A DNA stretch of 64,000 nucleotides from the sequence record PP738783.1. One strand, written 5' to 3'. Positions 13,453 to 14,526 of this stretch are shown here, piece by piece; position 1 is the stretch's first letter; each line of letters starts with the position of its first letter. The position numbers were made by a program, and so were the translations under genes. The notes under the pieces are model-generated. The model was not told the DNA's origin, searched no databases, and saw only the letters and a program-made list of their open reading frames with translations. Source of the DNA: Klebsiella phage vB_KpnM_Tauntaun_ER47.

Positions 13453-14526
13453 TCAAGCAACCCCCGTAAAGGCGTTTACTATCTGGAAATGATCATCGAA
13501 GAATTCCCCTTGTCGTTGTACGACCTCATGCATAGGTAGCCAGAACGCGTCTGCTGCATCATCAGCACCGCCCATGATACGAGGCAATGAACCATCGTTA
13601 TTAGGTTCGAGCTTGATATACTGTGCTACAGTCGGTTTTGAGAAGTACACCGAACGTTTCGGATGATCGAACAGCATCGAATTACGGATAGAACCACGAA
13701 TAACCTTTTCAGGTACTTTAATTCGTACTTCTTCCAGCAATTCACGGATCGCGCAATCAAGGAACGTTTCGTTACCGTTTTTGTGTCCACCCGGAAGCGC
13801 CAACGCATCTTTACCAGGCGCAAACTTACGACGAATTACTAACACGTTGTTATTACATACGACCACTGAATCAGCCGTGCAACAGTTCAGAGAATCCGGA
13901 TACGGATATTTTTTGAACTTGTCAATCTCTCGTTGCCAGTGTGTATCTTCATGGGACAAACGTTGGAATTCTTTTGTTTGTGTCCATTCATCGATAAAGG
14001 AAACCGTAGTGCTAGGCGCATATTTTAACAAATCTTCGTCCCAGCCTTCATGGTGTTCCCAGATAATTTTGCGTAAATTGGTCGAGGACAGATCCTGATC
14101 TCCAACCTTCACAGGTTCAACCGGAATATGATTCCATCCGAATGCTTTAAGCCAGTAAGAATCTTTGTCTTTTTCGTACCCGACGATCGCAATTCGATCA
14201 TTTCGAGTTTCATCGATTGCCATACGAACACAGGATTTCCATTTTTCCTCGTTATAGAGATAATCCGGAATGTGAGCGAATTTGATTCTGGCTGCATCTT
14301 CAACATCAAGTTTGCAGATAGACCAGCGAGTGATCATTGCTTGACGCTGTTTAGCGGTCAATGGGTTTAATGTGTTCGGATATGCATAAGCAGAACCGAT
14401 CAGAATGTAAACCGTATCAGCAACAGCAAGGGCTTCCCTTACCATTTTCTCATGACCATAGTGAAAAGGTTGAAAACGTCCAATTACTACAGCTTTATCA
14501 TATTTGTGTTTCATAACGTGCTCCAC
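13453..14526 (-). CDS. natV: bifunctional NMN adenylyltransferase / Nudix hydrolase (NatV-like)
   Basis: The N-terminal GRFQPFHYGH is a (H/T)xGH nucleotidyltransferase motif. The C-terminal GGHKNGNETFLDCAIRELLEEVRI is a Nudix box (GX5EX7REUXEEXGU). The architecture matches KVP40 NatV. Confidence 0.8.
   Translation of the reverse strand: MEHVMKHKYDKAVVIGRFQPFHYGHEKMVREALAVADTVYILIGSAYAYPNTLNPLTAKQRQAMITRWSICKLDVEDAARIKFAHIPDYLYNEEKWKSCVRMAIDETRNDRIAIVGYEKDKDSYWLKAFGWNHIPVEPVKVGDQDLSSTNLRKIIWEHHEGWDEDLLKYAPSTTVSFIDEWTQTKEFQRLSHEDTHWQREIDKFKKYPYPDSLNCCTADSVVVCNNNVLVIRRKFAPGKDALALPGGHKNGNETFLDCAIRELLEEVRIKVPEKVIRGSIRNSMLFDHPKRSVYFSKPTVAQYIKLEPNNDGSLPRIMGGADDAADAFWLPMHEVVQRQGEFFDDHFQIVNAFTGVA

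Follow-up and report, generated by a model that had tools for sequence, protein, structure and literature searches.

An open reading frame (ORF) in Klebsiella phage vB_KpnM_Tauntaun_ER47 (sequence record PP738783.1), lying at 13453-14526 on the minus strand of the 64,000-nucleotide stretch analysed here (the window), joins a nucleotidyltransferase motif to a Nudix box and so raises the question of whether this phage rebuilds nicotinamide adenine dinucleotide (NAD+) during infection and, if it does, to what end. Fusions of a NadM adenylyltransferase to a Nudix domain are known from phages (Iyer et al., 2022; PMC9503650). In Vibrio phage KVP40, the nicotinamide phosphoribosyltransferase (Nampt, or NadV) and the nicotinamide mononucleotide (NMN) adenylyltransferase (Nmnat) make up the pathway NARP2, which raises NAD+ and counters type I Thoeris and other NAD+-depleting systems (Osterman et al., 2024; bioRxiv 10.1101/2024.02.11.579819); according to a 2026 preprint, the RES-based aRES defence is likewise cancelled by NARP2. 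The ORF very probably encodes a bifunctional NadM-Nudix enzyme that is the counterpart of KVP40 NatV and one half of the NARP2 salvage route in KP15-like phages, where it would blunt NAD+-depleting defences. The gene is real, intact and already annotated, and is catalogued in the published NARP2 pathway; as its Nampt partner and the pathway itself are also annotated and published, no new kind of system is involved.

Both catalytic domains are recognized in the 353-residue product. Pfam identifies a cytidylyltransferase-like domain of the HIGH superfamily (PF01467, CTP_transf_like; residues 10-98, 6.5e-11) and a NUDIX domain (PF00293; residues 215-340, 9.5e-13), and the protein matches the phage family PHROG_395 (1.6e-99). 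Residues 3-338 of PDB entry 2qjo align with residues 1-350 of the phage protein (E = 4.3e-52, 35% identity), and PDB entry 2qjt matches over ~350 residues (E = 3.8e-43, 33% identity). The NCBIfam models of the PRK05379 series, which represent bifunctional nicotinamide-nucleotide adenylyltransferase/Nudix hydrolases, align from end to end (for NF003786, residues 2-352 against positions 11-354 of 354).

The catalytic residues were compared in an alignment of the protein with 2qjo, 2qjt and the homologues from Citrobacter phage CfP1, Aeromonas phage 25, a Vibrio phage of the KVP40 genus, Pseudomonas phage Astolliot and Ralstonia phage RSL1. On the nucleotidyltransferase side Gly12, Arg13, His18, His21, Thr145 and Arg148 are invariant; in the Nudix box the same is true of Gly243, Glu249, Arg257, Glu258, Leu259, Glu261 and Glu262. 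The box departs from the textbook pattern Gx5Ex7REUxEExGU at a single position, with Arg in place of the penultimate Gly, and this departure is common to the Synechocystis enzyme 2qjo (EETRL). Beyond the box, Phe282, Arg287, Asp318-Asp319 and Asp341-His342 are also common to the phage protein and the solved enzymes. A preliminary description of the locus, made from the sequence alone, had reported an HxGH head fused to a Nudix box and had compared the architecture with that of KVP40 NatV. Both motifs that it quoted are located in the ORF, and the comparison holds over the full length of the protein, with the signature residues invariant against the solved enzymes and the KVP40-genus homologue. 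A substituted catalytic His or Nudix glutamate, which that description had named as a finding that would overturn its proposal, is not seen at any of these positions. The motifs and the other features of the locus are listed in Table 1.

Table 1. Coordinates of the NadM-Nudix gene, its motifs and its flanking features in the window.
Feature	Position	Strand	Description and basis
NadM-Nudix (NatV-like) coding sequence	13453..14514	minus	353 aa, ATG start, TGA stop; ORF list, PP738765.1 annotation, family matches
Shine-Dalgarno sequence GGAG	14521..14524	minus	6-nt spacer to ATG; direct sequence reading
GRFQPFHYGH, (H/T)xGH ATP-binding motif of HIGH nucleotidyltransferase domain	14452..14481	minus	aa 12-21 (H18, H21)
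SSTNLR, second NMNAT signature SxTxxR	14071..14088	minus	S143-S-T145-N-L-R148; multiple alignment
Nudix box GGHKNGNETFLDCAIRELLEEVRI	13720..13791	minus	aa 242-265, G243-x5-E249-x7-R257-E258-L-x-E261-E262-x-R-I; multiple alignment
Sigma-70-type promoter match	14637..14664	minus	TTGACA, 16 nt spacer, TATAAT (12/12); promoter scan, consensus match
Micro-ORF in leader between promoter and gene	14540..14638	minus	32 aa, single transmembrane (TM) segment; ORF list, PP738765.1 annotation
SPFH/Band-7 membrane protein, upstream neighbour	14691..15617	minus	Pfam Band_7 4.1e-19
First 3' stem-loop (proximal)	13387..13416	minus	9-11 bp stem, CCGCACAUA...UAUGUGCGG then UUAUUGUG; inverted repeat I3, fold
Second 3' stem-loop (distal)	13316..13357	minus	G+C-rich, A-run/U-run flanks, AAAAAAGCCCUUGCG-UUCU-CGUGAGGGCUUUUGUAUU; inverted repeat I1, fold

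The ORF list contains a single long frame in 13453-14526, and the preliminary description had taken this whole span as the gene. The frame is indeed intact; its 5' limit needs to be moved. The GTG at 14526 chosen by the ORF finder was rejected as a start because it sits inside the Shine-Dalgarno sequence, and the ATG at 14514 is almost certainly the true one: it is preceded at a suitable spacing by GGAG, is the annotated start in relatives and is the Met at which the PDB alignments open. The same GGAG and spacing precede the ATG in CfP1, and PP738765.1, a genome ~99% identical to the window, is annotated with identical coordinates and a 353-residue product from this ATG.

The gene region is 98.5-99.8% identical to that of more than 100 KP15-type Klebsiella phages (genus Slopekvirus, family Straboviridae; T4-type, with genomes of ~175 kb), and the similarity to PP738765.1 extends over the whole window save for a mosaic stretch at 21.5-31.5 kb. 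Several public records name the gene 'bifunctional NMN adenylyltransferase/Nudix hydrolase' or 'NadM family', and NAD salvage enzymes have been described in all Klebsiella Slopekvirus phages (2025 paper; PMC11845039). The NARP2 reading calls for a Nampt partner. The preliminary description had found none in the window and had supposed that one might lie elsewhere in the genome. A tblastn search with Slopekvirus Nampt agrees on the first point (best E in the 64-kb window of 1.6), and for this lineage the second is borne out by PP738765.1, the closest complete genome, in which a 477-residue Nampt with the Pfam domains NAPRTase and NAMPT_N is encoded at 150627-152060, outside the stretch equivalent to the window, ~17.6 kb past its end and ~72 kb from the NadM-Nudix gene. 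The genes that flank Nampt in the relatives are RNA ligase 2 and nrdD.

The two genes also occur together more widely. In the phage collection, NadM-Nudix at ≥95% identity (at least 95%) and Nampt at ≥90% (at least 90%) are each found in 111 records, and in the 60-80% identity band, made up of Karamvirus and Pseudotevenvirus-like phages of Enterobacter, Cronobacter and Citrobacter, there are 64 NadM-Nudix and 67 Nampt records. The genes adjoin each other in Astolliot and are separated by one small gene in RSL1, and this closeness in unrelated phages supports a functional pair. Published surveys agree: 94% of phages with a KVP40-type Nampt also carry Nmnat, and the Nampt proteins of phages KP15, KP27 and Matisse are tabulated as 'Nmnat-associated' (NARP2) in the supplement of the same study (Osterman et al., 2024), while NadV is reported in every NadM phage (Iyer et al., 2022).

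These data bear on the possibility that the enzyme works alone on NMN supplied by the host, with Nampt irrelevant to it or missing from this phage. The window without Nampt would fit such an arrangement, as would the deletions that set the source genome apart from its relatives. The window does not reach the Nampt locus, however, so that the absence of the gene from it is uninformative, and both the matching record counts within the genus and the survey of Iyer et al. (2022) speak for a partner. We regard a stand-alone enzyme as extremely improbable.

Two relatives show further features of these genes. In Escherichia phage phT4A (NC_055712.1, 70047-71104) the NadM-Nudix match is in two pieces, annotated as two 'cytidyltransferase' genes, with 98.3% identity; either a frameshift or an error in sequencing may account for the split, and a natural knockout is conceivable. 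In Klebsiella phage KLB1 a 105-residue protein annotated as 'rifampin ADP-ribosyl transferase'-like is encoded upstream of Nampt (L003 1369-1686), and a protein with an MCP/YpsA-like (SLOG) domain adjoins RNA ligase 2 (L003 4077-4658). By their predicted domains, these two are further NAD+/ADP-ribose-related proteins near Nampt.

The closest characterized counterpart is the NARP2 Nmnat of KVP40, NatV (Lee et al., 2017, as cited by Osterman et al., 2024), which has the same two-domain architecture and length. The homologue from the KVP40 genus (Schizotequatrovirus) is 41% identical over its full length and shares all of the signature residues, and tblastn with NadM-Nudix returns 63 Vibrio phage records. 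In KVP40-type phages Nampt is also distant from Nmnat (49 kb apart in Vibrio phage D486), and both lineages are T4-like Straboviridae. The present enzyme differs from that of KVP40 in that the host is Klebsiella rather than Vibrio, in that the gene has another genomic position, between rI.-1/SPFH and nrdC.11 in the tk-nrdC region, and in that its activities are predicted. The NadM-Nudix enzymes of Synechocystis (slr0787; 2qjo) and Francisella tularensis (2qjt and 2r5w) are identical to it at the catalytic positions of the HxGH motif, the SxTxxR signature and the Nudix box; these enzymes are cellular, however, and the phage clade has GGH where they have GGF at the opening of the box.

Two other NAD+ reconstitution pathways share part of this chemistry. 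NARP3, which pairs the NadR-like Bas30_86 with the PnuC-like Bas30_87 (Yan et al., 2026; PMC13464706), likewise ends with the adenylylation of NMN by an enzyme of the HIGH superfamily and rebuilds NAD+ in phages of Enterobacteriaceae. Its own features are a fused ribosylnicotinamide kinase, a transporter partner and the use of imported nicotinamide riboside, whereas the fusion partner here is a Nudix domain. Membership of NARP3 was rejected on the NadR models, whose cut-offs of 341 and 201 bits are far above the scores obtained (32.6 and 27 bits), and on the Nudix identity of the C-terminal domain; no PnuC is annotated in PP738765.1, and no transporter stands beside NadM-Nudix. NARP1 (Adps and Namat) reaches the same outcome, NAD+ rebuilt from its cleavage products, and its Namat is homologous to Nampt. 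Membership of NARP1 was also rejected. A tblastn search of the whole PP738765.1 genome with Adps of Vibrio phage Chester detected no Adps/Prs-like gene (best E of 0.89), and the Slopekvirus Nampt is only 30% identical to NARP1 Namat, compared with 49% to the Nampt of the KVP40-like phage and 40% to that of RSL1; Osterman et al. (2024) place it in the Nmnat-associated clade.

From the enzyme family and the work on KVP40 we infer the activities of the enzyme, its early expression and its anti-defence benefit in Klebsiella, and on this basis a cycle can be proposed. The phage Nampt would form NMN from nicotinamide and phosphoribosyl pyrophosphate (PRPP), and the N-terminal HxGH domain would join NMN and ATP to give NAD+. 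The C-terminal Nudix domain would split ADP-ribose into AMP and ribose-5-phosphate, which a ribose-phosphate pyrophosphokinase would convert to PRPP; this last enzyme is presumably that of the host, because none was found in the PP738765.1 genome in the Adps search described above. Both products of NADase action, nicotinamide and ADP-ribose, would in this way be fed back into NAD+, so that the NAD+ pool could be raised or held during infection and NAD+-depleting defences blunted.

Several points weigh against this reading of the locus. The best PRK05379 sub-model scores 258.3 bits, under its equivalog cut-off of 397, although on sequence grounds this score is best read as that of a divergent phage clade with its own family, PHROG_395. 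Nampt was seen in close relatives of the source phage, PP738765.1 being the nearest complete genome, and its distance from NadM-Nudix leaves the two genes unlinked, with no evident co-regulation. The searchable literature reports no activity or phenotype for any Slopekvirus NadM-Nudix or Nampt enzyme. Two further points, the sequence that follows the Nudix box and the excess NAD+ that NARP2 makes with or without a defence, each lead to a different view of what the enzyme does.

After the Nudix box the phage protein reads RS-VYFSKPTVAQY where the solved bacterial enzymes have RS-LRGRTITHAY, a difference that might alter the range of Nudix substrates. The main substrate could then be something other than free ADP-ribose, such as NAD(H) (the domain acting as a brake on the pool), immune signals derived from ADP-ribose or NAD-capped RNA, and the fusion would be a regulator or a degrader of signals instead of recycling ADP-ribose. 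The description of the NadM Nudix domain as an NAD+-cleaving regulator (Iyer et al., 2022) is in keeping with this, and the unlike segment is a property of the T4-like phage clade. The catalytic Nudix residues, together with the four shared sites beyond the box, are nevertheless common to enzymes that their depositors term ADP-ribose pyrophosphatases, and nothing in the analysis points to another substrate. A different main substrate is considered very unlikely.

NARP2 yields excess NAD+ with or without defence (Osterman et al., 2024), and because of this overproduction its benefit may be metabolic rather than anti-defence. The biochemistry would then be as proposed, and its purpose purely metabolic: an auxiliary NAD+ module for nucleotide synthesis, redox reactions or NAD+-consuming phage enzymes, with no meaningful advantage against defences in Klebsiella. 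In favour of this, the overproduction is described as costly, the 2025 study of Slopekvirus phages (PMC11845039) reads the genes as redox/metabolic auxiliary genes, and the pair is fixed across the genus with no patchiness, a pattern more usual for core metabolism. On the other hand, the KVP40 pair, supplied in trans or knocked into phage SBSphiJ, overcomes several NAD+-depleting systems, and the DNA ligase of the phage is by annotation an ATP-dependent one, so that ligation creates no evident special demand for NAD+. Metabolic and anti-defence roles are also not mutually exclusive. We consider a purely metabolic purpose unlikely and retain the NARP2 reading, in which the enzyme would help to offset NAD+ depletion. 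A lineage present in phage-therapy collections, Slopekvirus, is confirmed to carry an intact NARP2-type NAD+ salvage enzyme, which is relevant to any forecast of the defences acting by NAD+ depletion (SIR2-HerA, type I Thoeris, DSR, SEFIR and aRES) that these phages can overcome.

A wider role in recycling ADP-ribose can also be imagined. A 157-residue Macro-domain protein is encoded at 17950-18423 of the window (minus strand), 3.4 kb upstream of NadM-Nudix and on the same strand. It is the orthologue of T4 Tk.4 (31.8% identity, E = 5e-19), has homologues in 2934 phage records and is 37% identical (pairwise E = 2e-27) to the Macro 'phosphatase' that Vibrio phage Chester encodes with Adps on one side and Namat on the other; its PDB matches to yeast Poa1p are weak (2.5e-5). 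In the NARP1-AP arrangement, as in Chester, the Macro protein Adpp has been shown to dephosphorylate ADP-ribose-1''-phosphate (ADPR-1''P), and the text of the preprint does not mention T4 or Tk.4. The NadM-Nudix enzyme of T4-like NARP2 phages might by analogy belong to a larger ADP-ribose recycling set that includes the Tk.4-type Macro protein. The Macro protein would dephosphorylate the ADPR-1''P produced by a RES-type defence to ADP-ribose, the Nudix domain would split that ADP-ribose, and ribose-5-phosphate would re-enter NAD+ synthesis via PRPP and Nampt. We offer this extension as a speculation that is doubtful as it stands; if it were true, a role in NAD+ conflict would fall to T4 Tk.4, which is widespread and for which the literature examined reports no function.

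T4-like genomes have a tk-nrdC region of early genes, and the gene belongs to it. Read along the transcribed direction, the locus runs tk, a small ORF, rI, rI.-1, the SPFH/Band-7 gene, the TM micro-ORF, NadM-Nudix, two stem-loops, small ORFs and nrdC.11. The preliminary description was silent on the strand and had the neighbours the other way round, with the micro-ORF and the SPFH gene following and a structured tandem-hairpin region preceding; because the gene is on the minus strand, the former are 5' of it and the hairpins 3'. The arrangement in CfP1 is that of the window, and Aeromonas phage 25 likewise has the gene in the interval from rI.-1 to nrdC.11, with no SPFH gene there. The promoter match in Table 1 is likely to be the early promoter of NadM-Nudix, a candidate put forward on its agreement with the consensus, with transcription predicted to begin near 14630; in CfP1 the -10 hexamer is kept and the -35 hexamer is TTGATT. 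Early expression would be probable given the tk-nrdC location, this consensus sigma-70 promoter and the tandem terminators at the end of the gene.

The micro-ORF has no Pfam match. Compared with CfP1 it shows ten synonymous and six conservative codon changes, with 11 of the 19 differences at third positions (P = 0.024), and by these changes it looks to be coding. The -10 hexamer of the promoter overlaps its ATG, so that a transcript from that promoter would be without this start codon; translation of the micro-ORF may depend entirely on SPFH transcripts that read through. The SPFH gene has a promoter-like site of its own at 15669-15642 (promoter scan). The SPFH and micro-TM proteins were rejected as functional partners of the enzyme, as they stand beside it only in Slopekvirus and Pseudotevenvirus, each with its own promoter-like site; adjacency of SPFH and NadM-Nudix is seen in CfP1 and is absent from Aeromonas phage 25, the KVP40-like phage, Astolliot and RSL1. 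Directly past the SPFH stop codon there is a hairpin, AAAGCCCCCUCUUUGGGGGCUU, at 14661-14682 (minus strand), the 3' arm of which enters the -35 hexamer of the promoter that follows. The hairpin is almost without a U tract on the transcribed strand, and the equivalent site in CfP1 is annotated as a terminator.

The structure that had been noticed at 13279-13452 is real (minimum free energy of -51.2 kcal/mol, z = -5.5 against shuffled sequences) and consists of two hairpins, which are 3' terminators rather than elements preceding the gene. The distal stem-loop has a near base-for-base match in CfP1, where a terminator is annotated, and is a predicted intrinsic terminator that should be usable in both directions; the proximal one is not conserved in CfP1. 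An Rfam search of the hairpin region gave sub-threshold noise, the best hit scoring 28 bits where the gathering score is 90. An upstream regulatory RNA was therefore rejected, the region being 3' of a minus-strand gene, with one terminator conserved in CfP1 and no Rfam family. A 39-residue ORF annotated in PP738765.1, equivalent to 13275-13394 of the window (minus strand), spans the conserved terminator hairpin and intergenic sequence and is probably not a gene.

Farther downstream, 10602-11609 (minus strand) encodes a 335-residue nucleotidyltransferase of the RlaP family (Pfam, 4.6e-12), which is nrdC.11 of T4-like phages. It follows NadM-Nudix in Slopekvirus, CfP1 and Aeromonas phage 25, and in the last of these a single small ORF separates the two. 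Elsewhere in the window, ~4.4 kb of PP738765.1 (L001 32226-36600) is missing at a junction at ~31484-31521, where the flanking alignments overlap by 38 nt; this overlap suggests a deletion between short repeats. A standalone 135-residue Nudix hydrolase is encoded in the missing block, and tblastn finds no copy of it anywhere in the window, and other top-matching records also carry more DNA than the window at this junction.

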